52,445 nucleotides of DNA from Candidatus Limnocylindrales bacterium (lineage in GTDB: Bacteria; Chloroflexota; Limnocylindria; Limnocylindrales; CSP1-4): positions 1 to 52,445 of the forward strand of contig JBDSZH010000050.1 in NCBI GenBank assembly GCA_039925225.1, given 5' to 3'. Under the pieces are notes generated by a model. That model saw nothing but the letters and a program-made list of their open reading frames with translations. It searched no databases and had not been told where the DNA came from. Position numbers and translations under genes: made by a program. Positions within the stretch are counted from its first letter, which is position 1; each line of letters starts with the position of its first letter. Of this stretch, positions 2,782 to 35,678 are shown one piece after another.

Positions 2782-4146
2782 GTGCCTCAGCCTGTGCTGA
2801 CGCCGGCCATCCGAGAAGCGATCGCCCGCCTGGAGCGGGCGGACATCATGGTCGGCATCCCGAGCTTCAAGAACGCGACGACCATCGGCTATGTCGTGCG
2901 CGCGGCTCAGGCTGGCCTCGTCCAGTACTTCCCGGATCTGCGACCCGTCGTGGTCAACTCGGACGCCGGCTCGCCGGACGGCACGCAAAGGGTTGTCGTC
3001 GACACCGAGCCGCCGGACTACGTCGAGCGGATCCTGCTCGTCCGCCCGACCAACAAGCTGGCCCGCGTCTCGCTGACCTACCCGGAGATCGACGGTACCG
3101 GCGGCAAGGGTGCCGCGCTCCGCACGATCTTCGAGATCGCCGCGGCGCTGGAGGTCCAGGCGCTGGTCGTCGTGGACTCGGACCTGCGGAGCATCGGGCC
3201 CGAGTGGATCGAGCTCCTCGCCGGCCCGATCCTGAAGGGCGGCTATGACTACGTCGCGCCGCTGTACGCGCGCCACAAGCACGACGGCACGATCACGAAC
3301 AACGTCACGTACCCGCTCACGCGCGCGCTGTACGGATTGCGCATCCGGCAGCCCATCGGCGGCGACTTCGGGGTGTCCGGCGACCTCGTCCGGCATTACC
3401 TCGAGGCGGGCTACTGGACGTCCGAGGTCTCAAAGTTCGGGATCGACGTGTGGATGACCACGCACGCCCTCACCGGCGGCTTCGCGATCTGCCAGGCGCG
3501 ACTCGGCGCAAAGGTCCACGACCCCAAGGACCCCGGCGCAGATCTGGGCCCGATGTTCCGCCAGGTCGTGACCACGATCCTGCGAATGGCCGTGGCGAAC
3601 GCCGATCGCTGGCGCCAGGTCAAGGGCAGCCACGACGTCCCGGCCTACGGCTTCGAACGGCTCGCAGACCCCCCGCCGCTCGACGTGAACGTGCTCAGGC
3701 TGTTGTCCGAGTTCAACGAGGCGGCGCTGACGATGAGCACCACCTGGAGCGAAATGCTGCCCGATGACACTGCGGCGGCCGTGCAGGGTCTCGCCGACGA
3801 GGCGGGGACCGCGGCGGACGCCGTCCGTACCGCGCTGGACCTGGGTGCGCCCGGCCAGGAACGAGCCGCTACCGCCGCGATGGCAGACGCCGCCGCGGGC
3901 TTCGGATTCCCGGATGCCGTCTGGGCCCGCGTGGTCTTCGATCTCGTGATTGCCGCCCGCGACCACCCCGACCGTCTCGAATCGTTCGTGGCTGCACTCG
4001 TGCCCGTCTACTTCGGACGAGTGGCGAGCTCGGTCATCGAGAACCGGTACCTGTCCACCGAGCGTGCCGAGGAGAGCGTGGAGCGGCAGGCGCGCGAATT
4101 CGAACGCCTGAAGCCGTATCTCGTCAATCGATGGGCGAAGGCATGA
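2782..4146 (+). CDS. GT-A fold glycosyltransferase-like protein (function unassigned)
   Basis: 454-aa ORF with 'VGIPSFKNATTIGYVV' near the N-terminus and a DXD-like 'LVVVDSDLRS'. Its 3' end overlaps the downstream gpgS-like gene by 16 nt, so the two look operonic. Confidence 0.6.
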   Translation: MPQPVLTPAIREAIARLERADIMVGIPSFKNATTIGYVVRAAQAGLVQYFPDLRPVVVNSDAGSPDGTQRVVVDTEPPDYVERILLVRPTNKLARVSLTYPEIDGTGGKGAALRTIFEIAAALEVQALVVVDSDLRSIGPEWIELLAGPILKGGYDYVAPLYARHKHDGTITNNVTYPLTRALYGLRIRQPIGGDFGVSGDLVRHYLEAGYWTSEVSKFGIDVWMTTHALTGGFAICQARLGAKVHDPKDPGADLGPMFRQVVTTILRMAVANADRWRQVKGSHDVPAYGFERLADPPPLDVNVLRLLSEFNEAALTMSTTWSEMLPDDTAAAVQGLADEAGTAADAVRTALDLGAPGQERAATAAMADAAAGFGFPDAVWARVVFDLVIAARDHPDRLESFVAALVPVYFGRVASSVIENRYLSTERAEESVERQAREFERLKPYLVNRWAKA

Positions 4147-7458: not shown

Positions 7459-7722
7459 ATGGAAAAGGTGGTCAACATTCACGAGGCGAAGACGAACTTC
7501 TCCCGCCTCATCGAGCGGGTGCGGGCCGGCGAACGAGTCGTGATCGCGAAGGCAGGGCGCCCGGTCGCGGTCCTGTCACGATACGAAGGGCGTCCCCCGC
7601 GTCGGGTACCGGGCATGGACCGGGGGCGCGTCGTGATCCATGCGAACTTCGACGATCCGGTCCCGGAGTGGGATCCGGACAACATGCACCCGGACGATCC
7701 GCTGCGCGGGCTGGTTGGATGA
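7459..7722 (+). CDS. Type II antitoxin, Phd/YefM-like
   Basis: 87 aa. 'IHEAKTNFSRLIERVRAGERVVIAKAGRPVAVL' is the typical antitoxin N-domain. Its stop overlaps the toxin start (ATGA at 7719-7722). Confidence 0.8.
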   Translation: MEKVVNIHEAKTNFSRLIERVRAGERVVIAKAGRPVAVLSRYEGRPPRRVPGMDRGRVVIHANFDDPVPEWDPDNMHPDDPLRGLVG

Positions 7723-8105
7723 AGGTCCTGATCGACTCGCACGTGTTTCTGTGGTGGGTTCTTGAGGAGCCGCGGCTGACGCCGGCCATGCGCGAGATCA
7801 TTTCGGATGGCGGCAATGAGATCTTGTTCAGCGCCGCAAGCGCGTACGAGCTCGCCTACAAGGCGGCAGACGGACGATTGACGCTGCCGGAGGATGCCCA
7901 GTCCTATATCACCGATCGACTTGACGCCAATGGCTTTGATCCGTTGCCGGTCGACATTGGCCACGCGCTGACGGCCGCACTGCTGCCGCGCATCCATCGC
8001 GATCCGTTCGACCGCCTCTTGGTGGCCCAGGCCCAGCGTGAGGGCATTCCCATCCTGACGGCGGATCCCGTGATCGCTCGGTACGACGTCGAAACCATCT
8101 CGTGA
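7719..8105 (+). CDS. vapC: PIN-domain toxin (VapC-type ribonuclease)
   Basis: 'MKVLIDSHVFLWW...', 'FSAASAYELAYK', 'DPFDRLLVAQA...PILTAD' are acidic PIN signatures. The internal ATG at 7719 was chosen over the ORF-track start 7668 because of the ATGA coupling. Confidence 0.85.
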   Translation: MKVLIDSHVFLWWVLEEPRLTPAMREIISDGGNEILFSAASAYELAYKAADGRLTLPEDAQSYITDRLDANGFDPLPVDIGHALTAALLPRIHRDPFDRLLVAQAQREGIPILTADPVIARYDVETIS

Positions 8106-8929: not shown

Positions 8930-8938
8930 GCCCGCGTG

Positions 8939-8944
8939 TATCCT
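8939..8944 (+). promoter_or_regulatory. -10-like hexamer TATCCT 6 nt upstream of ATG 8951
   Basis: 'gTATCCTccggccATG'. This supports 8951 rather than 8936 as the response-regulator start. Confidence 0.4.
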
Positions 8945-8950
8945 CCGGCC

Positions 8951-9697
8951 ATGTTGAGCGGCGGCGGTTGGAGGGGCGGCCCCGGGGCCCCGCGCATCCT
9001 CATCGTCGACGACGACCCGAACCTGCTCGTGCTCCTCGCCGATCAACTGCGCGCCGATGGCTTCGAGATCCAGACGGCGCGGGACGGGGAAGAGGCACTC
9101 AGGCGCCTCGACGGCGGCTGGCCGGATCTGCTGATCGTGGACATGATGATGGCCCGCATGGACGGCCTCACCCTCGCCCGAGAGGTCAAGGCACGCGCCG
9201 ACCTGCCGATCATCGTCCTTTCGGCAATCGACACCGCCGACTCCAAAGCCGACCTCCTCGAGGAGGTCGCCGAGGACTACGTCACCAAGCCGTACCACTA
9301 CCCGGAACTGCGGGCCCGGATCATGCGGGTCATGCGCCGGCTCGGCGACAAGGTGCCGCGGCGCGAGCTCGTGCTGGGTCCGGACCTCTCGCTGGAGCTG
9401 CGCCGCAAGTCGGCGACCGTAAAAGGCGAGGTCGTGCAGCTGACGCCCACCGAATCGCGCTTGCTCTATGCGCTCGCCGCGAACCTCGGCAACACCGTGA
9501 GCACGGAGACGCTGCTCGATCGGGGCTGGGGCGATACGGACGACGCGGATCCGTCATACGTCTGGGTGACGATGCGCCGGCTGCGCCAAAAGATCGAGCC
9601 GGACCCGGACCACCCGATCCACCTGGTCACGGTTCGCGGGGTCGGCTACCGGCTCGTCTCCCGGGCCGCACCCGAGCCGGTCGGCGAGGCTGGGTGA
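8951..9697 (+). CDS. OmpR-family response regulator
   Basis: Receiver domain ('RILIVDDDPN', 'DLLIVDMMMARMDG', 'YVTKPY') plus a winged-helix output ('TVRGVGYRL'). Confidence 0.85.
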   Translation: MLSGGGWRGGPGAPRILIVDDDPNLLVLLADQLRADGFEIQTARDGEEALRRLDGGWPDLLIVDMMMARMDGLTLAREVKARADLPIIVLSAIDTADSKADLLEEVAEDYVTKPYHYPELRARIMRVMRRLGDKVPRRELVLGPDLSLELRRKSATVKGEVVQLTPTESRLLYALAANLGNTVSTETLLDRGWGDTDDADPSYVWVTMRRLRQKIEPDPDHPIHLVTVRGVGYRLVSRAAPEPVGEAG

Positions 9698-11157
9698 GCG
9701 AATCGAGCCGTCGCCCGCCCGAGCGACCGGGCCCTCGGCCGGAACCGGTGCGAATCGGGTCCGCGATGTCGTTTCGCGCCCGGCTGACCCGGGGCCTGGT
9801 GATCGGCTCGGTGCTGCCCCTGGCGCTCTTTGGGCTCGTCCTGATCGGCACGGAGATCGCGCGGACCGGCGTCGTCGACTCGACGCTCGTCCGAGTCGTG
9901 GTGTTCGTGCTGGCCGCGGCGATCATCATCACCGTCCTGTTCGCGTACTTCCTCGCAGGCAACCTCACCGCGCCTCTGCGAGCGGTGTCCCGGGCGGTCG
10001 AGCGCACGTCGGCGGGCGACCTTTCCGTCCGCGTCGAGGTCGCCGGTGAGGACGAGCTGGCCCGCCTCGTCGAGAGTCACAATCGCCTTGCGAGCGACCT
10101 GGAGCGTCGCAACGAGGAGCTGGGCCGGATCCTCCTGGCGATCGGCGAGACGTCGCCGCAGGACGGGCTGGATCGGCTGGTCGCGCACTCGACGAGAAGC
10201 GCGAAGGACGCCTTCAGGCTGATCGATGCCCGGATCGTCCTCGGCGACCCGACGATGGTGCCGGAAGAGGAGGACATCCCCGGCGAGTCGCGACCGGTTC
10301 GCGCCGTCCTCGCGTTGCCGGACGAGCGCGTCGGCGTGCTGGTGGGCCACCTTGCTGCGACGCGCCGCTGGGACGCCGCCGATCAGGACCTGCTGGAGCT
10401 GTACGCGAGCGAGGTTGCGGTCGCGATCAGGAACCTCGAGCTGTTCGACCAGGTGGAGCGGCAGCGCGTCCGGCTGGTCGAGCTCGATGCCGCCAAGGAC
10501 GAGTTCCTCCGCGGCATCAGCCACAACCTCCAGACCCCGCTGACGAGCATCCGCGCCTACGCGGAGCAGATGGGCACGGAGCGGCCGGACCCCCGGCTGT
10601 CGATCATCGTCGAGCAGTCCGATCGGCTGTACCGGATCGTCCGCCAGCTCGTCTCCGTGTCCCGGCTTGAGGCGGGCACCCTGCGCTCGAAGACGGAGGT
10701 CCTCGCGCTGGCGCCGCGGGTCCGCCGCGCCTGGGATGCGCTCGGGGTCGCCGGCGTGCCGTTCGAGCTCCGGGACGACGCGGCTGGCTGGCTGGCGATC
10801 GCCGATCCCGACCAGCTGGATCAGGTGCTCTGGGCGCTGCTCGACAACTCGGCGCGGTACGCCGGGGGAGCGCCGATTCGCACCTCCGTGGCGCCCCGGC
10901 CCTCCGAGGGCCTGCTCGCAGTGACCATCGCGGACAGCGGACTCGGCGTGAAGCCGGAGGACCGCGAGCGGATCTTCGAGCGCTACGAGCGCGGCGCCGC
11001 GGGCGCCGGGGTGGAGGGCACCGGCCTGGGGTTGTACGTCTCGCGTCAGCTGTGCCGGGCCATGGGCGGCGACCTGGTCCTGGAGCCGGCTGGCCCCGAA
11101 CCCGGTGCTGCATTCACGGTCCTGCTGCCCGCGGAGCCTCCCGCGACCGAGACCTGA
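9694..11157 (+). CDS. Sensor histidine kinase (TM-HAMP-GAF-like-HisKA-HATPase)
   Basis: H-box 'FLRGISHNLQTPLTSI', N/G boxes 'LLDNSARY' and 'GTGLGLYVSRQL', and a HAMP-like 'LTAPLRAVSRAVERTSAGDLS'. GTG 9694 overlaps the regulator stop (GTGA); ATG 9766 ('MSFRARL') is an alternative start. The ORF-track start 8617 is an artefact. Confidence 0.8.
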   Translation: MSESSRRPPERPGPRPEPVRIGSAMSFRARLTRGLVIGSVLPLALFGLVLIGTEIARTGVVDSTLVRVVVFVLAAAIIITVLFAYFLAGNLTAPLRAVSRAVERTSAGDLSVRVEVAGEDELARLVESHNRLASDLERRNEELGRILLAIGETSPQDGLDRLVAHSTRSAKDAFRLIDARIVLGDPTMVPEEEDIPGESRPVRAVLALPDERVGVLVGHLAATRRWDAADQDLLELYASEVAVAIRNLELFDQVERQRVRLVELDAAKDEFLRGISHNLQTPLTSIRAYAEQMGTERPDPRLSIIVEQSDRLYRIVRQLVSVSRLEAGTLRSKTEVLALAPRVRRAWDALGVAGVPFELRDDAAGWLAIADPDQLDQVLWALLDNSARYAGGAPIRTSVAPRPSEGLLAVTIADSGLGVKPEDRERIFERYERGAAGAGVEGTGLGLYVSRQLCRAMGGDLVLEPAGPEPGAAFTVLLPAEPPATET

Positions 11158-11288
11158 CAAGCCCACAGCGGGCCTGACGCGAGAAGCGCGTGGGCCGATA
11201 GTCCCAGTCGGCCAGTACGAAGGGCCGGTGCACGACAGAACCACTGGCAAGGTCACGAGAAAGGTCGCCTGCGAAGACTTGGGGTTGG

Positions 11289-12155
11289 ATGTTCACGACC
11301 CCTGCAACCCCGATCGATCATGCCCCGGATGCCCCCGCGACGGCCCCGGATGCGGCGCCCAAGCGACGCCCCAGGAGTCGCGGGCAGAGCCTCGCCGAGT
11401 TCGCATTGACGGTGCCATTCGCCCTGTTCATGGTCCTGTTCGGACTCGACTTCGGGCGCGTCTTCCTCGGCTGGGTCGCCCTCAGCAACGCTGCCCGCGA
11501 GGCGTCGAACTACGCGGCCATGAACCCGACTGCGTGGACCCTGCCCTACAACCTGGCCGTCCAGGCCGAGTACACGCGGCTCGTGCAGACGGAGGCGTCC
11601 AGCATCAACTGCATCCTCGAGTCGCCGATCCCCCCGCCGACCTTCCCGTCCGGCACGAGCATTGGTGCCCCGGCGAACGCCAAGCTGACCTGCCAGTTCG
11701 GCCTGATCACGCCGTTCATCAGCCTCATCCTGGGCAACACGATCCCGGTCTCATCCTCGTCCGCGTTCCCAGTCCGGAGCGGCACGATCGAGGGCATTCC
11801 CGTCGAGACGCTGGTCCCGTCGCCCACTGCCGGCTCGACGGCGAGCGCAGCACCGACGGCGAGCGCAACACCGACGGCGAGCCCGGGGCCAAGTTCGTCT
11901 GTCAATCCGAGCGCCTCGCCGACCGCGACGCCGGCACCAACGCCGACCGCGACGCCGGCGACGTGCACGGTGGTCAGCCTCCTGAACATCCAGACGAACA
12001 AGGCGGCCGCGAAGTGGATCGACGCGGGCTTCAGCGGGAGCGTGATCTTCACGCCGCTCGTCCCGCCGAACTACAAGATCCTGTGGCAGAGCCTGACCGT
12101 TGGCACCACCCAGTCGTGCAGCAGCGGTATCAACGTGCGGAGCCGCGCGCCATGA
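11289..12155 (+). CDS. TadE-like pseudopilin-family protein with a Pro/Thr/Ala/Ser linker and a PASTA-like C-terminal module
   Basis: 'RGQSLAEFALTVPFALFMVLFGLDFGRVF' is the TadE-like N-terminal hydrophobic segment. A low-complexity linker covers aa ~178-225. A C-terminal ~60-aa module is bracketed by two Cys ('CTVVSLLNIQTNKAAAKWIDAGFSGSV...SC'). Confidence 0.65.
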   Translation: MFTTPATPIDHAPDAPATAPDAAPKRRPRSRGQSLAEFALTVPFALFMVLFGLDFGRVFLGWVALSNAAREASNYAAMNPTAWTLPYNLAVQAEYTRLVQTEASSINCILESPIPPPTFPSGTSIGAPANAKLTCQFGLITPFISLILGNTIPVSSSSAFPVRSGTIEGIPVETLVPSPTAGSTASAAPTASATPTASPGPSSSVNPSASPTATPAPTPTATPATCTVVSLLNIQTNKAAAKWIDAGFSGSVIFTPLVPPNYKILWQSLTVGTTQSCSSGINVRSRAP

Positions 12156-12646
12156 CGCGCCCGTCGCGGGGTCGATCCGGCCGTTCGGCCGGGCAGAGCC
12201 TGGTCGAGTTCGCACTGATCTTCCCGCTCATCCTGCTGCTCGTCGTCGGCTTCGTGGAGGTGGGCCGGGCGGTCTTCGCCTACAACACGATCGCCAACGC
12301 CGCTCGGCAGGCCGCGCGCGTCGCCATCGTGAACCAACTTGGCGACGTGACCGACTGCGACGAGACACGGCCGGTCGACGATCCGTACGAGCCGCACTGG
12401 TCCCTCCGCGGCTGCGCAATCGCGGCGGCGAGCACGCTCGGCATCACCGCTGCCAACGTGAGCGTGTCCTACGCACCGCCGCCGTCCACGACTCTCGGCT
12501 GTTACCCGACGCTCCATGTCGGCTGCATCGCCTCGGTGACCGTCACCTATGACTTCAAGGTCTCGACGCCGTTCGTGAACATGCTCATCGGCCCGTTCAC
12601 CATGCGCCAGACCTCGGAGATGCCAATCGAGAGGGTCTTCCCATGA
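12152..12646 (+). CDS. TadE-like pseudopilin-family protein
   Basis: 'GQSLVEFALIFPLILLLVVGFVEVGRAVFAYNTIANAARQAARVA'. ATGA overlaps with both neighbouring genes. The start was taken inside the long ORF 11105..12646. Confidence 0.75.
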   Translation: MTRPSRGRSGRSAGQSLVEFALIFPLILLLVVGFVEVGRAVFAYNTIANAARQAARVAIVNQLGDVTDCDETRPVDDPYEPHWSLRGCAIAAASTLGITAANVSVSYAPPPSTTLGCYPTLHVGCIASVTVTYDFKVSTPFVNMLIGPFTMRQTSEMPIERVFP

Positions 12647-13953
12647 TCAACCGGTGGCGATCCCGCGGGTGTGATCCGGAGGCCGGCCAGGCGATCGTCG
12701 TGATGATCGGAGCGATCCTGCTGTCCGTCGCGTTGGTCGCCACGATCGTTGACGGCGGGAACGTACTCGCCCAGCAGCGCGTGACACAGAACGGCGCCGA
12801 CGCTACCGCCGAGGCGGGCGCGGTGCTGCTCGCTGAGCGGCTGGCAGGCGCTAAAGAGCCGTCCGGCGGCTGGGACCTGAACATCGCGGGGCGCCTCGCG
12901 CAGACGGCCGCAGCCAACAACATGACGGTCGACGCCGCGTACTACACGGACATCTGCGGAATTCCTTTGCAGGACGACGGCACCGCCGCCACCAACGGTG
13001 ACGAGACCGAGGATCTCTCGGTTGCGCTGCAGGTCGGGAACGGCTCGCACGTCCTGCCCGGCGGCACCGCGACCGCCCCAGACTGCCCGAACAGGCTCGT
13101 TGGCCCGGTGGCGGGTGTCCTCGTCATCGGCCGCAAGCGGGTTGCCGCGTATGTCGCGGGCGCGATCGGAATCAAGGAGTTCCAGATCACGACACGTGCC
13201 ACCGCCGTCGCGGGCTACCTGCAGGGGTATTGCGACGCCACCGAAGGCAAGTACTGCGCGCTCCTGCCCGTCGCCTTCCCGGTGAACATCATCAAGTGCA
13301 ACGGCAGCAACAAGCCGATCGATACCGGGACGCCGTGGACATACAACGTCGTCTACAAGATCCCGCTCTGCCAGAGCAGCCCGGGCAATGTCGGCTATCT
13401 GGACTGGGATCCACCGGCCGGCGGCATCGGTGAGGTGGTCTGCTCCATCCTCACCGCGGACAACCCCGCGATCGACCTGCCGTCGTGGCAGTACGTCACC
13501 GCAACCGGCAACAGCAACGGCGGCGGCGGGGCCTGCGGCATGAGCATTGAGGAGGCACTCCGCACCTACGAAGGCGAAGTCGTCCTCGCACCCCAATTCG
13601 ATCTCACCTGCAACCCGGGTCAAAACGCCACACCGAACAGCTCGTCGCCGGCCGTGATCACGGCGCCGAACTATGGCTGCCCCGCCGGGGACCTGGGCGG
13701 GAACGGGTCGAACCAGTGGTACCGGATGCCGAGCTTCGCGTTCCTGGAGCTGTGCGGCCCCGCGGTCGCCGGCTGCGGTGGACTCCACGCGGCGTACATC
13801 TCGGGCAACAACTCGGCCATCTGCGACACGGGCAACGGCGCGACGTCATGCCTGATCGCGAAGTTCAAGCACATCATGGCGACCGGCACCGTCGGAGCGG
13901 GCGTGGGCTCCGGGACCGGGAGCAAGGCCGTCGGGGTCCAGCTCATCAAGTAG
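12643..13953 (+). CDS. TadG-like (Tad_N-type) secreted, cysteine-rich protein
   Basis: 'GQAIVVMIGAILLSVALVATIVDGGNVLAQQRVTQNGADATAEAGA' matches the TadG/Tad_N N-terminus. There are about 18 Cys along the mature part. Confidence 0.7.
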   Translation: MINRWRSRGCDPEAGQAIVVMIGAILLSVALVATIVDGGNVLAQQRVTQNGADATAEAGAVLLAERLAGAKEPSGGWDLNIAGRLAQTAAANNMTVDAAYYTDICGIPLQDDGTAATNGDETEDLSVALQVGNGSHVLPGGTATAPDCPNRLVGPVAGVLVIGRKRVAAYVAGAIGIKEFQITTRATAVAGYLQGYCDATEGKYCALLPVAFPVNIIKCNGSNKPIDTGTPWTYNVVYKIPLCQSSPGNVGYLDWDPPAGGIGEVVCSILTADNPAIDLPSWQYVTATGNSNGGGGACGMSIEEALRTYEGEVVLAPQFDLTCNPGQNATPNSSSPAVITAPNYGCPAGDLGGNGSNQWYRMPSFAFLELCGPAVAGCGGLHAAYISGNNSAICDTGNGATSCLIAKFKHIMATGTVGAGVGSGTGSKAVGVQLIK

Positions 13954-15059: not shown

Positions 15060-15310
15060 GCGCCAACGATACGGGGCCGGGCGGGCGATTACGAGGCCTT
15101 CCGGGCTGCCCCGGAGGCAACCCCTTACCCGCGGCCGGTCCACGACAACACGCGTGACGGCCCGGCGGGAACACCCTCCCAAGAAATCGGACGTGGCGGA
15201 TCGGGCGTAGCCGGTCAGATAGGGCGAGGTGCCGCTGTCCGCGGCCGACACCGGAATCTGAGTTCGCCTCGCGTCACGGTCGGGTCACCATGTGACGCCA
15301 TGCTGCGCGA

Positions 15311-16546
15311 ATGCTCGTCCTTGTGTCCTTCGCCTTCATCGCCGGCGTCGTTTCGATCCTCGCGCCGTGCACGCTGCCCGTGGTGCCCCTCGTCATGGGG
15401 GCCGGGGCGGGCGGCGGATCGCGGCGACCGGTGGGGATCGTGGTCGGACTCGCGATCAGCTTCGTCGCCGTCACGATCATCCTGGCCTCGATCCTGGCGG
15501 CGCTCGGGATCTCGACCGCGGGCCTTCGGGTGGTCGCAGTCATCGCTCTTGGGTCGATCGGCCTGACCCTTGCCTGGCCGTGGTTCGCGCGTCGAGTGGA
15601 TGCGACATTCCGGCCCGTCGCCCAGCTCGGGGTCCGGCTCGCCGGCGGCCAATCGAGAAATGGATTTCGATCAGGGGTCGCGATGGGTGCGGCGATTGGG
15701 CTCGTATGGGCGCCCTGCGTCGGCCCGATCATGGCGGGCACCATCGCGGTGGCCGCGACCCGAGGGCCGTCGCTGGAGACCGCCCTCGTCGCCCTGGCCT
15801 ACGTGGCTGGGGCGGCCCTGCCGCTGCTCGCCGTGGCTCGCCTGGGCCGTCGGTTCGTGGACCGCGTCGGTGGGCTCGCGGCCGACATGAAACCGAGACG
15901 AGCGCTCGGCTCGCTGACTGTCGTGGCGGCATTGCTGATTGCCACCGGCCTCGACGCTCGCGTCCAGTCCGCCGTGACCGCCGTGCTCCCCGCCGAGTGG
16001 AGTGCGGTCCTCTATAGCGTCGAACGACAGCCGATCATCCAGCAGGAGGTACGGGCATTGGACAAGAGTGCGCCCACCGCGTCAGGTCCCGCCGACGTCT
16101 CGCTCGGCCAGTACGGCCAGGCTCCCGAGTTCGAGGGCATCACCGCCTGGATCAACACCGAGCCGCTGACGATCAGCGGGCTTCGCGGCCGCGTCGTGCT
16201 TGTCCACTTCTGGACCTTTGGATGCATCAACTGCCAGAACGTCCAGCCATACGTGAAGGCGTGGTATGGCCGCTACGCGGCCCAGGGTTTCGAGGTCATC
16301 GGCGTCCACACGCCCGAGCTTTCCTTCGAGAAGGACATCGCCAACGTCCGCGAGGCCGTCATCGACAAGGGCGTGACGTTCCCGGTTGCCTTCGACCCAA
16401 ACTTCCGGACCTGGAACGCCTACGCGAACAGCTACTGGCCGGCGATGTACTTCATCGACAAGGCCGGCAGGATTCGCTACGCCCACGTCGGCGAGGGCGC
16501 CTACGCCGAGCAGGAACAGGTGATCCGCCAGCTCCTTGCCGAGTAG
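15311..16546 (+). CDS. dipZ: CcdA/DsbD-type thiol:disulfide transporter fused to a thioredoxin-like domain (DipZ-like)
   Basis: N-terminal 'FIAGVVSILAPCTLPVVP' and a second TM Cys 'WAPCVGP'. The C-terminal redoxin domain has 'FWTFGCINCQNVQP' (CxxC). Confidence 0.85.
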   Translation: MLVLVSFAFIAGVVSILAPCTLPVVPLVMGAGAGGGSRRPVGIVVGLAISFVAVTIILASILAALGISTAGLRVVAVIALGSIGLTLAWPWFARRVDATFRPVAQLGVRLAGGQSRNGFRSGVAMGAAIGLVWAPCVGPIMAGTIAVAATRGPSLETALVALAYVAGAALPLLAVARLGRRFVDRVGGLAADMKPRRALGSLTVVAALLIATGLDARVQSAVTAVLPAEWSAVLYSVERQPIIQQEVRALDKSAPTASGPADVSLGQYGQAPEFEGITAWINTEPLTISGLRGRVVLVHFWTFGCINCQNVQPYVKAWYGRYAAQGFEVIGVHTPELSFEKDIANVREAVIDKGVTFPVAFDPNFRTWNAYANSYWPAMYFIDKAGRIRYAHVGEGAYAEQEQVIRQLLAE

Positions 16547-17279: not shown

Positions 17280-17354
17280 GCCGACATAGCTCAGCGGTAG
17301 AGCAGCTGTTTCGTAAACAGCAGGTCCTCGGTTCAAATCCGAGTGTCGGCTCCA
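17280..17354 (+). tRNA. tRNA-Thr (anticodon CGU), CCA encoded
   Basis: Cloverleaf folded by hand: acceptor GCCGACA/TGTCGGC, D stem GCTC/GAGC, anticodon stem GCTGT/ACAGC with loop TTCGTAA, T stem CTCGG/CCGAG with loop TTCAAAT, discriminator T, then CCA. Confidence 0.9.
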
Positions 17355-17839: not shown

Positions 17840-20800
17840 GTGTTGTCCGGGACGGCACCCGGGCGCAATATCGCAGTCGTGCCTCGTCGAGTCTCCAGTC
17901 CGATCTTCGTTGGCCGTGTCACCGAGCGAGCGGCGCTGTCCGAGGCGCTCGAGCGCGCCGCTGCCGGTCAGCCCGGCATCGTGCTCATCAACGGCGAAGC
18001 GGGCGTGGGCAAGAGCCGCCTCCTCACCGAGGTCGCAACCCTGTCCGCCGCGATGCGGGCCACCACGGTCGGGGGACTGTGCGTGGATGTGGCCGCAGGG
18101 ACGTTTCCGTACGCGCCCTTCGTCGACATCGTGCGTGACCTGCACGGCGCTAGATTGACGGCGGCGCTCCCCGCGTCGGCGCGCGCCGAGCTCGGGCGGC
18201 TCGTTCCCGAGATCGCCCAGCAGGCCGATGGTCGATCGGATGCCGTCCAGGGTGGCCAGGGACGGCTGTTCGCGGCAGTTCGCGACCTCCTGGCCGTCGC
18301 GTCGACGTCGCGGCCGATCCTGATCACGATCGAGGACCTGCACTGGGCCGACGCGTCGACGCTCGAACTCGTGACGTATCTCGCCCGGTCGATGCAGACG
18401 GAGCACTACCTCCTCGTCGCCACCGCCCGACTGGAGACGCTTCCCCGGCGGCATCCCCTCCTGGGCATCGTCGCCGAGCTCGCGCGCCTGCCGGCGTTCG
18501 AACGGATCGACCTTGCCCGGTTCGATCGGGGCGAACTGGTCCAGCAGCTGACCGGGATCCTTGGCCGCGTACCGGATCCGGGGGTGGCGCTAAAGGTGTT
18601 CGAGCGCTCGGATGGGAATGCCTTCTTCGCCGAGGAACTCGTCGCGACGGATGCAAGCCGTGGCGGGCAGCTGCCCGCGTCGCTCCACGAGGTGCTGGCC
18701 GCACGCCTGGCGACGCTCGATGAGGTGGCACAGGGGATCGTTCGCGTGGCGGCGGTCGCCGGACGCGTCGTCAGCCACGAGCTGCTCGAAGAAGTGGGCG
18801 GGAGGCCGTCGCCGGTCCTCATCGCCGCGCTCCGAGCGGCGGTCGACCAAGGCGTGCTCCTGCGCGTCGAGGACCCCTCGCCCGGCTACGCGTTCAGGCA
18901 CGCACTCGTTCGCGAGGCCGCCACCGATGAGCTCCTCCCGACCGAGCGGGTGGCGATCCACCGCGCCATCGCCGACGCCATTGAGCGGGACCGTGCGTTG
19001 TCGCCGGCAGGCGAGCTGGCCCGGACGGGCGAGATCGCCTACCACGCGATGGCAGCGAACGACCTGTCCCGGGCGCTGACGGCGTCGCTCGCCGCCGTGG
19101 TGGTCGCCGAGGAGGCATCGGCCTACGCGGAGGCGGAGCTCCACCTGGAGCGGATCCTCGACATCTGGCCGCGGGTCGCCGACGCTGCATCCCGGGTGGG
19201 CGCGGATCATGCCGACGTCCTGGCTCGCACCGCCCGTGCCGCGGCGTCCGCCGGGCACTTGTCGCGTGCCGTCGCGCTCGCCCAGGACGCATTGGCCGAG
19301 CTGGGCCCAAGCGACACGGATCGACGGGTCGCGATCCTCCTCGAGCTGTTCGACTATGCGTGGGAGGCGGCGGAGCTCGACATCGCGGACCGCGTCGTCC
19401 CCGCGGCGATGGCCCTGCTGCGTGACGAGCGGTCTGCCCGGACCGCCGAGGCGTTCGCGGCGGAAGCGCTGCTCAGCTGGCACCAGGGTCGGTACACGAC
19501 TGCCCGCGAGTCGGCGGCACAGGCAATCGCGATCGCGCGCGAGTGCGGCGCTTCCCGGGAGCTCGCGATGGCGCTCATGATCCTCGCCCAGGTCTACGCG
19601 CACATCGGGGAAACGAACCATGCCGAGGAGTCATTCGTCGAAGCGGCAGAGATCGTGGAGTCAGTCAACGACCCTCGGCTCAGGGCGCGGACGACTCGTT
19701 CGGGGGCCTGGACCCGGTACCTGCACGGCCGTTTCGAGGAGAGCCTGGCCCTGAGTTGGGCTGGGCTCGAGATCGCGCGACGAGAGGGTGCCGACGGGCG
19801 GTACGGGGTGAACCTCCTCGACGGGGCCTTCGAGGACCTGATCGAGCTCGGTCGATGGCCGGAAGCCGAGCTCGTCGCTGATCAGATCCTGGCCAGGATG
19901 TCTCCATCCCTCGAGATGCTCGGCGTCCATATGTCGCTGGGGCGGCTGTTCACGCTCCAGGGTCGGATCGCGGACGCCGAACGAGAGATCGCCGAAGCCG
20001 AGGCGATGGCCGCGGTCGGTCCGCATCGGGTCTGGCAGCTGGAGGACGCGATTCTCCTCGCGTACGCGACCGGCCGGTACGCAGATGGGCGGGGCCTCAT
20101 GGACGCGGCGCTATCCGCCTCTCCCGAACCCGATCGCGATGCGATCCTGTGGTGGCCACTTCACAAGGCCATCGCAGGTGAGGCCGATCACGCCGATGGC
20201 GCCCGCCGCCGTCGTCGCACGGGCGAAGCGGAGCAGGCCGTCGCGGCGGGGCACCGGTTCGCGGATGCCCTCGGCACGAGCGCCCGGGCGGCGATCGAGG
20301 CCGACGGAGCCGGTCCGTTGATCCGGGCCGAACTTCGGAGCGCAGACGCGGAGATAAGCCGTCTCGATGGCCAGTCGGATCCCGCGCTGTGGGCGGCTGC
20401 GGTTGACGCTCGGCGCGAGCTCGAGCAGCTTTGGGAGCTGGCGTACGCTCGGTACCGACACGCCGAGGCGATCCTCCTGAGCGGCGGTCCCGCAAGCGAC
20501 GCAAAGCAGCCCTTGCGGCAGGCGCACGTCGTGGCGAGCGGCTTGGGTGCGGCCCCTCTCCGGATAGCCATCGAAGCGCTCGCGTCACGAGCGCGTATCC
20601 AGCTCGAGAGCGATCCGGGTAGCGTCGGGCCGGCGGCGAAGCGCCCGGCTTCTGCCCTGACCGCCCGGGAGCTCGAAGTCCTGGCACTCGTCGCGGCTGG
20701 CCATACCAACCGCGAGATCGGTGATCGCCTGTTCATCAGCGAAAAGACGGTTTCCGTGCACATCACCCACACGATGAACAAGTTGGGCGCGCTGAGTCGG

Positions 20801-20866
20801 TACGAGGCAGCCGCGGCGGCGACCCGACAAGGGTTGCTGGAGCCGGAAACGAGGACCGCTAACTGA
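17840..20866 (+). CDS. LAL-type regulator: STAND/AAA ATPase + TPR-like repeats + C-terminal LuxR HTH
   Basis: Walker A 'NGEAGVGKSRL', 'ITIEDLHWADASTLEL', 'GNAFFAEEL', and a C-terminal 'LTARELEVLALVAAGHTNREIGDRLFISEKTVSVHITHTMNKLG'. Confidence 0.85.
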   Translation: MLSGTAPGRNIAVVPRRVSSPIFVGRVTERAALSEALERAAAGQPGIVLINGEAGVGKSRLLTEVATLSAAMRATTVGGLCVDVAAGTFPYAPFVDIVRDLHGARLTAALPASARAELGRLVPEIAQQADGRSDAVQGGQGRLFAAVRDLLAVASTSRPILITIEDLHWADASTLELVTYLARSMQTEHYLLVATARLETLPRRHPLLGIVAELARLPAFERIDLARFDRGELVQQLTGILGRVPDPGVALKVFERSDGNAFFAEELVATDASRGGQLPASLHEVLAARLATLDEVAQGIVRVAAVAGRVVSHELLEEVGGRPSPVLIAALRAAVDQGVLLRVEDPSPGYAFRHALVREAATDELLPTERVAIHRAIADAIERDRALSPAGELARTGEIAYHAMAANDLSRALTASLAAVVVAEEASAYAEAELHLERILDIWPRVADAASRVGADHADVLARTARAAASAGHLSRAVALAQDALAELGPSDTDRRVAILLELFDYAWEAAELDIADRVVPAAMALLRDERSARTAEAFAAEALLSWHQGRYTTARESAAQAIAIARECGASRELAMALMILAQVYAHIGETNHAEESFVEAAEIVESVNDPRLRARTTRSGAWTRYLHGRFEESLALSWAGLEIARREGADGRYGVNLLDGAFEDLIELGRWPEAELVADQILARMSPSLEMLGVHMSLGRLFTLQGRIADAEREIAEAEAMAAVGPHRVWQLEDAILLAYATGRYADGRGLMDAALSASPEPDRDAILWWPLHKAIAGEADHADGARRRRRTGEAEQAVAAGHRFADALGTSARAAIEADGAGPLIRAELRSADAEISRLDGQSDPALWAAAVDARRELEQLWELAYARYRHAEAILLSGGPASDAKQPLRQAHVVASGLGAAPLRIAIEALASRARIQLESDPGSVGPAAKRPASALTARELEVLALVAAGHTNREIGDRLFISEKTVSVHITHTMNKLGALSRYEAAAAATRQGLLEPETRTAN

Positions 20867-20895
20867 GCGCCTTGCGCTCGCGACTCCACGCTTGT

Positions 20896-20964
20896 GCCAC
20901 AACGCTCAGGCCGATCCACTTCGTAGACAGCAGGTCCTCGGTTCAAATCCGAGTGTCGGCTCCA
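20896..20964 (+). pseudogene. Truncated/degenerate tRNA-Thr copy (3' half intact, 5' half decayed)
   Basis: 20927-20969 is identical to 17317-17359 (43 bp). It extends to 50 bp (20920-20969 vs 17310-17359) with one mismatch. The upstream 'gccacaacgctcagg' only weakly resembles the tRNA 5' half and is about 6 nt too short to fold. Confidence 0.6.
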
Positions 20965-21182
20965 GCTCCATGAAGCCCCGGCGAGGATTCGAGCAATCGA
21001 TCGCTGACGTACGATGCTGGCGTGTCCGACGCCGCGGACGTCGCGCGCGAGGATCGGCGATCAGTTCGAAGCCGTGCGCGAGGTGCTCCGGGCTCCCAGC
21101 TCATCGGTGACGTCCCTCCGCCGGCGCGAGATGCCGGTCTGGTTCCTCCGATCACGTTGTCGAGGTGCCCCTCGTCGACGGC

Positions 21183-21188
21183 TAGAAT
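21183..21188 (+). promoter_or_regulatory. -10-like hexamer TAGAAT 7 nt upstream of ATG 21196
   Basis: 'gcTAGAATcgcgggcATG'. Confidence 0.45.
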
Positions 21189-21195
21189 CGCGGGC

Positions 21196-24100
21196 ATGAT
21201 CGCGTGCCCGAGCTGCGGAACCGCGAACCCTGACGGCGCGCGCTTCTGCATGGCATGCGCCACGCCCCTCGAGATCCCAGGACCGAGCCGCGAGGCACGC
21301 AAGGTCGTCACGGTCGTCTTCGCGGACATCACGGGCTCGACCGGGCTCGGGGAGCGCCTCGACCCTGAATCGCTCCGGGCGATCATGGGTCGCTGGTTCG
21401 AGGCCATGCGCGCGGTGTTGGAGCACCACGGCGGCACTGTCGAGAAGTTCATCGGTGACGCCGTCGTCGCCGTCTTCGGGGTCCCGGTCGTCCACGAGGA
21501 CGATGCGCTGCGTGCGGTCCGCTCGGCGGTCGACATGGAGGCTGCGCTCCTCGAGTTGAACGTCGCACTCCGTGCGGAGCGAGACCTGGAGATCGAGATG
21601 CGCGTCGGCGTCAACACGGGCGAGGTGGTCGTTGGCGATGCGCGGGCTGGTGGCAGCCGCGCGACCGGCGACGCGGTCAACGTCGCGGCGCGGCTGCAGC
21701 AGGCTGCGGAACCCGGCGAGAGCCTGCTCGGCGATTCGACGTGGCGGCTCGTACGTGATGCGGCGGTCACCGGCGAGCCCCGCGAGGTCCACGTCAAGGG
21801 TCGGGACGAGCCCGTCATCGTGCGCCGGCTGCTGTCAGTTGACCGGTCGGCGGACGCTATCCACCGCCGCGTCGGCGGCGCAATGGTGGGCCGCGATCGC
21901 GAGCTGGGAATCCTGCGAGGGGCATACGAGCGGTCCGTCGTTGAGGAACGCTGCGTCCTGGTCACGGTCCTCGGTTCGGCCGGTGTCGGGAAGAGCCGTC
22001 TGGTCCAGGAGTTCCTTGCAAGCGCCGAGGGTGCCACGGTCCTTCGCGGCCGCTGCCTCCCGTACGGTGGCGGGATCACCTGGTATCCGGTCGCAGGGCT
22101 GCTGCGGTCTGCCGTCGGACTCGGCGAGGACGCGGAGCCGAGCGCCGTCCTCGAGCGACTGCGCAGAAGGCTCGATGGCATCACCGACGCCGACCAGATC
22201 CTCGCCAGGCTGGCCGAGCCCCTGGGCGTCACCGGCGAGCCGGCCCCGATCGAAGAGCTCGTATGGGCCATTCGCCGCTTCGTGGAGCGGGTCGCAACCG
22301 GCGGACCGGTGGTGCTTGTCATCGACGACCTGCAATGGGCGGAAGCAACGCTGCTGGATCTCGTGGAGCACCTCGCGGGGTGGGTGCACGGCGTGCCGGT
22401 TCTCCTGCTCGCGATGGCCCGACCGGAGTTGCTCGAGATTCGCGCGGGGTGGGGCGGCGGCAAGCCCGACGCGACGACGTTCCTTCTCGAGCCGCTGCCA
22501 TCCTCTGATACGGAGCAGCTCGTGCGCACCCTCCTCGAGGGCGCATCGATCCCGGCCGCCGCGGTGGCGCGCATCGCCACCGCCGCCGACGGAAACCCGC
22601 TGTACGTGGAGCAGGTCGTCGAGATGCTCCTGGACGATGGCGTCGTGCGGCGCCTTCGCGATGGCTCGCTGGAGGTGCGTGACCTCGAGACGATCTCCGT
22701 TCCGCCGACGATCCATGCGCTGCTCGCGGCTCGGCTGGATCGCCTCAGCGAAGCCGAGCGGCGCACGATCGAGCGGGCTGCGGTGGTCGGCAAGGAGTTC
22801 GGGCAGCGGGACGTCTCGGAGCTTACGCCGGCCGACGGTCGCGAAGGGTTGTCGCGCTCGCTGATGTCGCTCGTCCGAAAGGAGCTGATCCGGCCGGACC
22901 GGCGCCGCGACGATGGCGGCGAGACGTACCGCTTTCGCCATCTCCTTATCCGCGATGCGGCCTACGACAGCCTGCCCAAATCGGAGCGCGCGGACCTCCA
23001 CGAGCAGTTCGCGGACTGGCTGGATCGGGCCGTGGGCGACCGGATCGCGGACCTCGACGAGATCATCGGCTTCCACCTCGACCAGGCGCGGGCATATCGG
23101 CTGGCGCTCGGGCCGGAGGACGATCGGACGCGCAGCTTGGCGCTGCGGGCGGGTCGCCGCCTTGCAGCGGCCGGCGAGCGCGCCGCTGACCGTGAGGACC
23201 CGGTCGCTGGAGCTCGCTTGTTGACCCGCGCTGCGGACCTTCTGGTCTCCGACCCGCCTGCCCGATACCAGGCCCTGATGCTGCTGCTCTCGGTTGGTTT
23301 CCCGTTTGACTATGCCGCCGCGATGCAGGCCGCACGCCAGGCCGAGCAGGTCGGCGAGCAGCTCGGGGAGCTGGCGGCACGACGGGCATCGATCTGGGTC
23401 GCCAGCGCCCGGGCGATGACCGATCCGGACTTCCGCATATCGGACACTCGCGCGGAGACCGAGTTGGCCGCCCAGGCGTTCGAGGCAGAGGGAGACGTCG
23501 AGGGCCTCCTGGATGCCTACGCGCAGCTGAATCAGATCGACCTGGCCCTCGCGCATTGGGAGGATTCGCTCAGGTGGGCGCAGCTCGGCCTCGACCTCGC
23601 AACCCGTGCGGGACGAGAACGCATGCGCGGCACCTTTGCCATGTGGGTCTCCAACGCGCTCACCTGGGGATCCATGGACGCATCGGCAAGTATCGCGTTG
23701 ATGGAGGGACTGGTTGCCACGGCGACTCGCCGCCTGACCAAGGCTGCGATTTTCGATTCGATCGCGGTCCTGAAGGGCGTCCTCGGTGACCGGCCCGGTG
23801 CGGATGCCGCGAGAGGCGAGGCGGCCGCCATCTTCGACGAGTTGGGCCACCAGCACCGGGAGTTTCGTGACGCCTTCATGGAGTACGCGCTGGACGACTT
23901 CGGGGCCGCGGTCCGGCTGACGCGCGCCGAGGCAGCCGACCTGGAGCGGCGCGGCGACACAGGCCAACGCTCCACGATGCTCGGGCTCCAGTCTTGGACC
24001 CTGGCGCTCCTTGGCGACGATCAGGACGCGGCGGCGGCCGCGGCGACCGCGTATGCGCTGAGCGCGCCCGACGATGCCGTGTCGCAGATCCTCTGGCGAG

Positions 24101-24375
24101 CCGGACTCGGCCTTGTCGAGGCAAGGCGCGGCAACGCCGCCGAGGCGGACCGGCTCACGCACGAGGCTACCGAGGTGGCAGCGGAGACCGATTCGATGGA
24201 GGCCGGTACGGCGTGGCTCGCGCGGGCGATGGCCCTGGCCAGCCTCGGTCGCACGTCCGAGGCCAGCGACGCGGCCCGCGAGGCGCGCAGGCTGTTCGCG
24301 CTGAAGGGCTCGGTCAACGCGATGCGGCGCGCCGAGGCGCTCATCACGTCAGCTGGCAGCGCGGGACCTCGTTGA
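21196..24375 (+). CDS. Zinc-ribbon + class III adenylate/guanylate cyclase + STAND/AAA ATPase + TPR-like protein
   Basis: 'CPSCGTANPDGARFCMAC' is a zinc ribbon. 'VTVVFADITGSTGL...EKFIGDAVVAVFG...RVGVNTGEVVVGD' is the cyclase core. Walker A 'GSAGVGKSRL', 'LVIDDLQWAEATLLDL', 'GNPLYVEQ', and a long helical repeat tail follow. There is no C-terminal HTH. The start was moved from 21022 to 21196. Confidence 0.85.
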   Translation: MIACPSCGTANPDGARFCMACATPLEIPGPSREARKVVTVVFADITGSTGLGERLDPESLRAIMGRWFEAMRAVLEHHGGTVEKFIGDAVVAVFGVPVVHEDDALRAVRSAVDMEAALLELNVALRAERDLEIEMRVGVNTGEVVVGDARAGGSRATGDAVNVAARLQQAAEPGESLLGDSTWRLVRDAAVTGEPREVHVKGRDEPVIVRRLLSVDRSADAIHRRVGGAMVGRDRELGILRGAYERSVVEERCVLVTVLGSAGVGKSRLVQEFLASAEGATVLRGRCLPYGGGITWYPVAGLLRSAVGLGEDAEPSAVLERLRRRLDGITDADQILARLAEPLGVTGEPAPIEELVWAIRRFVERVATGGPVVLVIDDLQWAEATLLDLVEHLAGWVHGVPVLLLAMARPELLEIRAGWGGGKPDATTFLLEPLPSSDTEQLVRTLLEGASIPAAAVARIATAADGNPLYVEQVVEMLLDDGVVRRLRDGSLEVRDLETISVPPTIHALLAARLDRLSEAERRTIERAAVVGKEFGQRDVSELTPADGREGLSRSLMSLVRKELIRPDRRRDDGGETYRFRHLLIRDAAYDSLPKSERADLHEQFADWLDRAVGDRIADLDEIIGFHLDQARAYRLALGPEDDRTRSLALRAGRRLAAAGERAADREDPVAGARLLTRAADLLVSDPPARYQALMLLLSVGFPFDYAAAMQAARQAEQVGEQLGELAARRASIWVASARAMTDPDFRISDTRAETELAAQAFEAEGDVEGLLDAYAQLNQIDLALAHWEDSLRWAQLGLDLATRAGRERMRGTFAMWVSNALTWGSMDASASIALMEGLVATATRRLTKAAIFDSIAVLKGVLGDRPGADAARGEAAAIFDELGHQHREFRDAFMEYALDDFGAAVRLTRAEAADLERRGDTGQRSTMLGLQSWTLALLGDDQDAAAAAATAYALSAPDDAVSQILWRAGLGLVEARRGNAAEADRLTHEATEVAAETDSMEAGTAWLARAMALASLGRTSEASDAAREARRLFALKGSVNAMRRAEALITSAGSAGPR

Positions 24376-35674: not shown

Positions 35675-35678
35675 GTCG

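Follow-up and report, generated by a model that had tools for sequence, protein, structure and literature searches.

The subject of this analysis is a cluster of three genes (genes 1 to 3) in a 52 kb contig of a Candidatus Limnocylindrales bacterium (hereafter the window, i.e., the whole stretch of 52,445 nucleotides that was analyzed, with about 50 genes and a GC content of ~69% throughout). The trio probably represents a regulated, interchangeable tip module of a Tad pilus that is detached from the genes of the pilus motor; it is this complete explanation, the tip module together with the two-component regulator encoded upstream of it, that we consider probable. The reading draws on the domain identities of the encoded proteins, the synteny, the paralogy with the distal part of a tad operon, a shared upstream repeat, the recognition helix of the regulator and the prepilin cleavage motif.

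The trio is predicted to encode three minor pilins, two of the TadE type and one large protein of the TadG type. All three proteins pass the Pfam thresholds in profile (HMM) searches, which confirms the TadE/TadE/TadG-like assignment made in a preliminary description of this DNA. The TadE domain (PF07811, cut-off 22.9 bits) is detected in the products of genes 1 and 2 with scores of 38.4 and 60.4 bits, respectively, and the sole addition from NCBIfam for the entire trio is a weak, sub-threshold match of gene 2 to TadE_Rv3655c. The genes are coupled by overlapping stop and start codons (ATGA) at 12152–12155 (genes 1 and 2) and 12643–12646 (genes 2 and 3), both as previously described; the 4-nt overlaps are also present in the relatives L001 and L002 (L numbers denote the loci fetched for comparison). 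The reading frames are intact and show high third-position GC, as in the coding sequence of the window.

Both TadE-like proteins carry a class III signal, with a basic leader, Gly at position -1, Glu at position +5 and a hydrophobic helix: ...RSRG/QSLAEFALTVPF in gene 1 (leader end RG/QSLAEF) and ...RSAG/QSLVEFALIFPL in gene 2 (AG/QSLVEF). This cleavage motif is conserved in the orthologs of both genes. The Flp pilin of the tad operons of the class (type C loci, see below) has a predicted cut at DG/QTLVEY, and Flp, gene 1 and gene 2 therefore have in common the context G/Q(S/T)L(V/A)E(F/Y) and would suit a single prepilin peptidase. The Flp-type cleavage motif of genes 1 and 2 further implies that their products depend on a prepilin peptidase and on a platform for assembly.

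A tblastn comparison of all fetched loci, run with protein queries from the window and from one informative locus, shows three recurrent arrangements. Type A, to which the window belongs, comprises ~38 loci with the order glycerate kinase, EndoIII-like glycosylase, regulator, kinase, TadE, TadE, TadG; some lineages have two trios behind the kinase. Orthologs of the window regulator, with 70–96% identity, are located directly upstream of the kinase and the trio in these ~38 loci, and the order of regulator, kinase and trio is held even where the identity of the TadG-like protein drops to 35% (L064, L069, L070 and L079). Type B loci show no regulator pair and consist of between one and three trios in tandem (e.g., L022, L026, L028–L032 and L034); tandem sets occur in L022, L026, L028 (three sets), L035 and others. 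At least 8 metagenome-assembled genomes (MAGs) combine a type A with a type B locus. A homolog of gene 2 precedes almost every TadG-like gene surveyed. In one type B locus, L028 (5524–15429, UBA5189, DHWF01000024.1), two tandem trios are followed by a TadE-like gene that overlaps an unannotated 953-aa open reading frame, with no regulator pair or tad core within 10 kb; this genome also has a window-type module (compare L022, L026, L030, L032 and L034).

In type C loci (L055/L084, L057, L059, L072, L085, L086 and L107–L109), a HisKA_3 kinase, a LuxR-type regulator, one or two Flp genes, RcpC/CpaB, TadZ (receiver and ParA domains), CpaF/TadA (T2SSE), TadB and TadC are followed by an OmpR-type regulator, a kinase, TadE, TadE and TadG, with a DUF192 gene beside the trio. 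Locus L078, where the sequence ends upstream, matches type C in its regulator, kinase and downstream genes and has two trios behind the kinase. No secretin was found in the tad operons of the class. In this class, a complete, secretin-less tad operon thus has the regulator-kinase-TadE-TadE-TadG block as its distal part, and in these related genomes all core parts except the peptidase adjoin the paralogous module. The TadG proteins of type C and gene 3 have the C-terminal motifs GNVGWLDW, PSWQYV, VLxPQFD, WYxxPxFA and GVQLI in common. The window regulator and kinase are 53% and 40% identical, respectively, to their type C counterparts, compared to at least 70% identity within a type, so that types A and C are old paralogs; the window module itself is such an old paralog and not the product of a recent translocation.

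The T2SSE-family ATPase was probed with an approximate PilT query, which recovered only L055 and L057, and this query was then replaced by the L055 proteins. Matches with a REC and a ParA-like domain in L066 and L073, considered as TadZ candidates, were rejected as tad loci, their neighbors being unrelated (an SPFH-like gene and others). The DUF192 gene (PF02643) that consistently accompanies the core-linked trio (L084 18322–18690, L085 18578–18943, L086 18598–18960, L107–L109 ~15139–15977) follows TadG in some loci and separates the kinase from the first TadE in others; none was detected in the window. The HisKA_3 kinase and the LuxR/GerE-type regulator are encoded directly upstream of flp (L084 4539–6293, L085 5150–6990, L086 5096–6840, L087 3244–5009); with this second pair, the tad system of the class has two embedded sensor pairs.

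The gene pair upstream of the trio (Table 1) is a two-component system of the OmpR/PhoB type, in which a regulator with receiver and winged-helix domains is paired with a HisKA/HATPase_c kinase. The kinase contains two N-terminal membrane helices with a short loop, which leaves almost no extracellular loop, and matches GAF_3 with a score of 26.4 bits, just under the cut-off of 27. The placement of the trio behind an OmpR/histidine kinase pair with a GAF-like kinase region thus holds, "GAF-like" being a fair term for such a score. The recognition helix of the window regulator reads ADPSYVWVTMRRLRQK, and both paralogs read ADPSYVWVT(M/V)RRLR(Q/R)K; this helix differs in the other OmpR-type regulator of the window, at 39128–39826.

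The ~90 nt that precede the start of gene 1 are conserved in 20 type A spacers, flanked by a variable 3' end of the kinase gene and a variable gene 1 leader. The direct repeat in the center of this block is expected by chance 0.01 times in the window. A 28-nt core of the block is unique in the window, has 0 matches in 100 shuffles, and recurs in 16 loci, in each case immediately before gene 1. The otherwise unalignable spacers of type C hold GCAAGGT-N5-GCAAGGT at the same place. In the 1.36 Mb of all loci, the exact repeat GCAAGGT-N5-G(C/A)AAGGT occurs 43 times, nearly always on the coding strand before the first TadE gene; with up to 2 mismatches, it is found upstream of 64 of the 101 first TadE genes of types A, B and C, compared to 37 of 2000 random windows (1.9%). 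From the end of the repeat to the ATG of gene 1 there are 24 nt, with a possible -10-like AAGACT at 11274–11279. If AAGACT is indeed the -10 element, one might speculate that the mRNA is leaderless or has a very short leader and that the repeat occupies the -35 region, as pho boxes do; a scan of the window for promoter and terminator consensus sequences is uninformative at 69% GC. Both paralogous regulators might bind this repeat, in which case all trio cassettes would belong to one regulon. The synteny of regulator, kinase and trio in ~38 loci and the conserved upstream repeat strengthen the earlier proposal that the adjacent two-component system controls the trio.

Table 1. Genes and non-coding elements around the TadE-TadE-TadG trio (window coordinates)
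Feature	Position	Strand	Details
Response regulator, OmpR/PhoB-type	8936–9697	+	Pfam Response_reg 90.9 bits, Trans_reg_C (winged helix) 79.8 bits
Histidine kinase	9766–11157	+	Pfam HAMP 50.5 bits, HisKA 47.5 bits, HATPase_c 76.9 bits
Conserved non-coding block	11197–11288	+	Between kinase and gene 1; proposed operator of the OmpR-type regulator
Direct repeat GCAAGGTcacgaGAAAGGT (GCAAGGT-N5-GAAAGGT)	11247–11265	+	Center of the conserved block
Gene 1	11289–12155	+	TadE-like minor pilin, 288 aa
Gene 2	12152–12646	+	Short TadE-like minor pilin, 164 aa
Gene 3	12643–13953	+	TadG-like large minor pilin, 436 aa
PhdYefM antitoxin/PIN-domain toxin pair	7459–8105		Between glycerate kinase and EndoIII-like genes
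DsbD_TM and Redoxin fusion	15311–16546		Pfam; beyond two minus-strand genes; DM13-like gene also downstream

The Tad domain (PF13400) is detected in all 34 diverse homologs of gene 3, with the best E-value of 1.5e-9, and the Tad_N helix spans residues 15–60 of the window protein (bases 12685–12822). The protein keeps Gly15-Gln16 and has Val instead of Glu at +5; the tip-most subunits of type II secretion systems and type IV pili, e.g., GspK, likewise lack Glu at this position. A pilin-like head is followed by a beta-rich C-terminal domain (~200–436) that ends in a conserved GVQLIK tail. The protein contains 15 cysteines, not about 18 as initially reported, and 14 of these are located beyond the membrane helix. 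All 14 extracytoplasmic cysteines are invariant in 34 homologs with 76–88% identity; in a far more diverse alignment, the invariant ones are only C219, C243, C346, C394 and C403. The match to Tad_C is below the threshold (14.8 vs 22.1 bits), so that the vWA/Tad_C module, which is a common although not a strictly defining feature, is not recognized in gene 3. The C-terminal half matches no Pfam or NCBIfam family in the window protein and no Pfam family in the 34 diverse homologs, and a search with the gene 3 profile against PDB sequences yields no meaningful match. AlphaFold2 produced a poor model from close homologs only (pLDDT 56, with uninformative Foldseek results). With the diverse alignment, the mean pLDDT is 80.5, and the model consists of a 54-residue helix (14–67), a helix-plus-sheet head and a beta-rich C-terminal domain, with no significant PDB neighbor in a Foldseek search; structural matches to MetAP and LuxQ (E>0.1) were dismissed as noise.

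An exact look-up of gene 3 and of a GalE-like gene at the left edge of the window returned no record of either. Gene 3 has 917 detectable homolog clusters, the best 120 of which show 76–88% identity; the named taxa among these 120 are almost all Candidatus Limnocylindria or Chloroflexota MAGs. A search without the word index identifies 490 representatives at 50% clustering, many of them full length with 33–52% identity. A scan of one genome per GTDB species detects 80 loci, essentially all in Limnocylindria-type MAGs, plus a few mis-binned labels. These searches define a family of ~490 TadG sequence clusters with a cysteine-rich C-terminal domain that matches no known structure.

Gene 1 encodes a 32-aa leader, the TadE helix and head, a Pro/Thr/Ala linker (~176–225) and a C-terminal domain of 63 aa (residues 226–288, bases 11964–12152). 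Of the two peculiarities previously ascribed to this protein, the added C-terminal domain is real, and the 30-aa N-terminal extension is a long class III leader. Its four cysteines, two in the head and two in the tail, are all conserved in a three-sequence alignment; gene 2 encodes a minimal TadE protein, also with four conserved cysteines. Types A and B both conserve the C-terminal domain of gene 1. PASTA (PF03793) matches 7 of the 26 homologous gene 1 tails, with the best E-value of 7.3e-5, and does not match the window copy at E<=1. An hhalign comparison of the gene 1 tail with the three PASTA repeats of a PknB-like kinase encoded in the window gives an alignment that is in register over 53 columns (E 0.0018, probability 15%), and the tail profile retrieves nothing meaningful from PDB sequences. 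With moderate confidence, we consider this domain to be PASTA-like. The equivalent position in the tad-operon paralog (the first TadE of L085 and L086) is occupied by a PKD domain. The PknB-like Ser/Thr kinase itself (47728–49701, minus strand) carries its extracellular PASTA repeats after a long Ala/Gly-rich linker.

These features are compatible with the following mechanism. A prepilin peptidase would cleave the subunits at G/Q, and the three mature subunits would associate through the helices at their N-termini; the resulting complex would prime and cap a Flp (Tad, type IVc) pilus. At the fiber tip, TadG would expose its disulfide-rich C-terminal domain and the first TadE its PASTA-like domain. 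The assembly motor (flp, rcpC, tadZ, cpaF/tadA, tadB, tadC and the peptidase) would be encoded elsewhere in the genome. The OmpR-type regulator and its kinase would control transcription of the trio via GCAAGGT-N5-GAAAGGT upstream of gene 1; as the same repeat also stands before the other trios of the class, a choice among several alternative pilus tips would be open to the cell. The assembly of the tip, the binding of the regulator, the tad core of this genome and a ligand of the tip are what we infer here from the genes and their arrangement.

Several observations weigh against this reading. The match of gene 3 to the Tad domain (PF13400) is marginal, at 23.1 bits with a cut-off of 22.3. Pfam searches with essentially all window genes detect no Flp, A24 peptidase, T2SSE, T2SSF, RcpC or secretin in the 52 kb, and a motif scan of the window finds no Flp-like small open reading frame; the reported lack of pilus machinery near the trio is borne out across the full window, which does not contain a Tad/Flp (type IVc) locus with Flp, TadA/CpaF, TadB/TadC and prepilin peptidase together. 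Several indirect comparisons have turned up no genome with both a window-type module and a tad core, and the species-representative scan includes no MAG with both a window-type and a core-linked module. For the regulatory part, conservation is the whole basis of the predicted link between regulator and operator; the period of the repeat is 12 bp vs 10–11 bp for most sites of the OmpR family; and the conserved block includes a 7-bp stem at ~11224–11248 (GCCGGTG ... CACTGGC) with one G-C to U-A covariation (5 vs 10 sequences).

The assemblies of contigs with Flp and CpaF (DASTII, JAICQM, DASYRA and JBJSWF) match none of the assemblies with a window-type module, and NCBI accession blocks likewise give no link between the two. 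A metagenome scan with the type A upstream element recovers 20 mostly short contigs, the longest of 39.7 kb, none of which is a known tad-core contig. The patterns used in the species-representative scan miss most core-linked TadG proteins, including the type C TadG of L085 and L086, so that the absence of MAGs with both types is uninformative. No A24 peptidase is encoded within 10 kb of the core-linked loci. CpaF shows strong conservation and is abundant in the class, its best 120 matches all being at least 89% identical and several of them coming from named Limnocylindria; for Flp of the class, 983 clusters are detectable. A literature search on Limnocylindria and pili returned nothing relevant. 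A tad core is likely to exist elsewhere in this genome.

For the upstream block, the alternative to a DNA operator is an RNA leader, i.e., a structured 5' untranslated region or a protein-binding RNA. The compensatory change in the stem described above, together with conserved G-U pairs, is what such a leader would be expected to show, but the fold energy of the block is no better than that of shuffled sequences (z = +0.88) and no Rfam family is matched at either gathering or E-value thresholds. The most conserved part is a direct rather than an inverted repeat that is found again upstream of type B and type C trios, in regions without other resemblance, and the matching conservation of the recognition helix of the regulators fits protein-DNA recognition. 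An RNA leader is therefore unlikely.

For the trio itself, another reading is an envelope device, in which the three proteins, possibly with Flp, form a short pseudopilus whose PASTA-like domain touches peptidoglycan, e.g., for secretion or to sense the wall, and do not decorate a long external pilus. Fragments of peptidoglycan are ligands of PASTA domains, and the PASTA-like tail of gene 1, the lack of a secretin in the tad operons of the class and a kinase that, being almost devoid of an extracellular loop, may sense the state of the membrane or envelope are all compatible with such a device. Against it stand the weak PASTA assignment, with no Pfam match of the window copy, the presence of PKD, a typical surface-exposed fold, at the same position of the core-linked paralog, and the lack of a secretion-substrate signature nearby, and we regard it as distinctly unlikely.

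The preliminary description had suggested a self-contained surface module. This idea is not supported: in relatives, the regulator-kinase-TadE-TadE-TadG block forms the distal part of a complete tad operon, and genes 1 and 2 possess a Flp-type cleavage motif. In its general form, a free-standing surface or adhesion module would be a membrane-inserted adhesin or envelope complex that works without Tad machinery under the control of the adjacent two-component system. The 52 kb without machinery, the distinct synteny of the window-type locus away from a tad core in ~38 loci and the failure to find one genome with both module and core are in line with this possibility. It is rendered highly doubtful by the full class III signal (Gly-1, Glu+5) that genes 1 and 2 have in common with Flp of the class, by the embedding of the paralog in complete tad operons, by the single cis element across all module types, which suggests a common regulon, and by the conservation and abundance of CpaF in the class. 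That the block is a decaying remnant, split from a since-lost tad operon and heading to pseudogenization, would account for the lack of core genes in view but is hardly credible given the intact frames with high third-position GC, the conserved translational coupling, the invariance of 14 of 14 mature cysteines and many motifs in 34 homologs, the full-length homologs down to 33% identity and the conserved upstream element. For annotation, the lesson of the tip-module reading is that "orphan" TadE/TadG trios should be interpreted as satellite Tad parts rather than as independent systems.

A more far-reaching version of the tip-module reading is a programmable Tad pilus, which we put forward as a tentative possibility that may well prove wrong. 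Under this version, interchangeable TadE-TadE-TadG tips are all controlled from the operator GCAAGGT-N5-GCAAGGT, and paralogous OmpR-type systems with the same DNA specificity and different kinases select among them; the TadG tips would have an undescribed fold with seven disulfides, and the first TadE would carry a PASTA-like or a PKD domain. If this is true, signal input would determine the identity of the tip and hence the targets to which the cell attaches or which it senses.

The gene neighborhood of the trio is conserved on the upstream side. The PhdYefM/PIN pair (Table 1) is the only difference between the upstream gene order of the window and that of the close relatives L001 and L002 and appears to be an insertion particular to this lineage, located immediately before the regulator operon. 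Further upstream, a 450–454 aa protein without a Pfam match (window 2782–4146; counterparts L001 1031–2395 and L002 1045–2397) has a constant position upstream of a Usp/glycosyltransferase gene in all three loci. The genes 3' of the trio vary among the window, L001 and L002. In the window, the first two, both on the minus strand, encode a lipoprotein-like protein and a CvpA homolog. The thiol-disulfide cluster noted earlier is present downstream of the trio, beyond these two intervening genes, but its association with the trio is not conserved: no other fetched locus contains a homolog of the DsbD/Redoxin gene, and the idea that these genes serve the cysteine-rich TadG protein was rejected on this ground.

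Other parts of the window contain a tRNA gene (17280–17351, Rfam 72.6 bits) between the DM13-like gene and a LuxR-type regulator; two very large AAA_16 (STAND-like) regulators side by side at 17840–24375, one of which (1008 aa) ends in a LuxR/GerE helix-turn-helix, and the other (1117 aa) combines an N-terminal zinc ribbon with an adenylate/guanylate cyclase domain; and, at 34199–37399, the genes for a LigD primase-polymerase and an ATP-dependent DNA ligase, with an unannotated 208-aa gene between them, a group taken to be a non-homologous end-joining set.

Among known systems, the large tip pilins CofB and TcpB of type IVb pili likewise combine a long helix and a head with beta-rich C-terminal domains, are located at the tip and initiate assembly; a Foldseek comparison of these proteins with gene 3 is non-significant (E ~0.7–2, probability 0.01), and no sequence similarity was detected. 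The canonical TadE, TadF and TadG of Aggregatibacter actinomycetemcomitans and Pseudomonas aeruginosa have the same PF07811 and PF13400 domains, the same G-1/E+5 motif and the same small-small-large order. In contrast to these proteins, which are encoded inside the tad locus, the window genes are detached, neither vWA nor another known C-terminal domain is detected in gene 3 and the first TadE has an extra domain.

With respect to regulation, the PprA-PprB two-component system of P. aeruginosa, which is encoded among tad genes, controls components of the Flp/Tad pilus. In Limnocylindria, by comparison, the OmpR-type pair is inserted between tadC and the minor pilins and a second, HisKA_3/LuxR pair is located upstream of flp, whereas the window copy is detached. 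The secretin-less Tad loci of Actinobacteria (e.g., Rv3654c-Rv3660c of Mycobacterium tuberculosis and tad of Bifidobacterium breve) encode a small Flp, then TadZ-TadA-TadB-TadC, followed by TadE/TadF-like proteins, with the peptidase elsewhere in the genome. The core-linked loci of Limnocylindria resemble them in the lack of a secretin and of an A24 peptidase within 10 kb; to our knowledge, an embedded OmpR-type pair, a large cysteine-rich TadG and satellite trios are all absent from the actinobacterial loci.

The closest system is the Kil apparatus of Myxococcus xanthus, a Tad pilus for which each of four TadE/TadF/TadG-like heterotrimers can serve as primer and cap; most of these heterotrimers are encoded in clusters of their own (Herrou et al. 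2025, PMC12075869). The TadG-like subunit's C-terminal domain is proposed to be located at the extremity of this pilus, and TadEFG tip complexes have been proposed for Tad systems generally (PMC12075869). The Kil Tips (KilL/KilM/KilN 1-4) are, like the modules described here, paralogous triplets of the TadE/F/G type, located mostly away from the core, and in both cases the large TadG-like member has a variable C-terminal domain. The window trio is a satellite triplet in the same sense, being detached from any core and occurring in a class with several triplets per genome (two or more loci in at least 8 MAGs). By analogy, the Limnocylindria trios fit the Kil model: the E-E-G triplets are invariant and occur several times per genome, the C-terminal domain of TadG evolves fast, and the machine would be encoded once.

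Unlike Kil, the principal Limnocylindria modules include a dedicated OmpR-type regulator and kinase (the term "two-component" never occurs in the text of PMC12075869), and they have a common direct repeat upstream. The TadG protein of Limnocylindria contains a distinct cysteine-rich domain without a Pfam or PDB match, and the first TadE has a PASTA-like or PKD tail. The phylum, Chloroflexota, is also different, with no known context of predation, and the Limnocylindria system is known from sequences alone. The use of multiple minor-pilin tip sets is accordingly a known principle, the first experimental case of Tad tip specificity having been reported for Myxococcus in 2025 (PMC12075869), and how Tad pili come to differ in what they bind is only beginning to be understood; what differs in Limnocylindria is the dedicated two-component pair, the shared repeat, the cysteine-rich TadG domain and the PASTA-like or PKD tail. 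If the tip-module reading is correct, the uncultured Limnocylindria, a class abundant in soil and freshwater, would follow the same principle of multiple tip sets per pilus as Myxococcus, with two directly testable additions, namely, a two-component switch within the module and a single cis repeat common to all tip cassettes.

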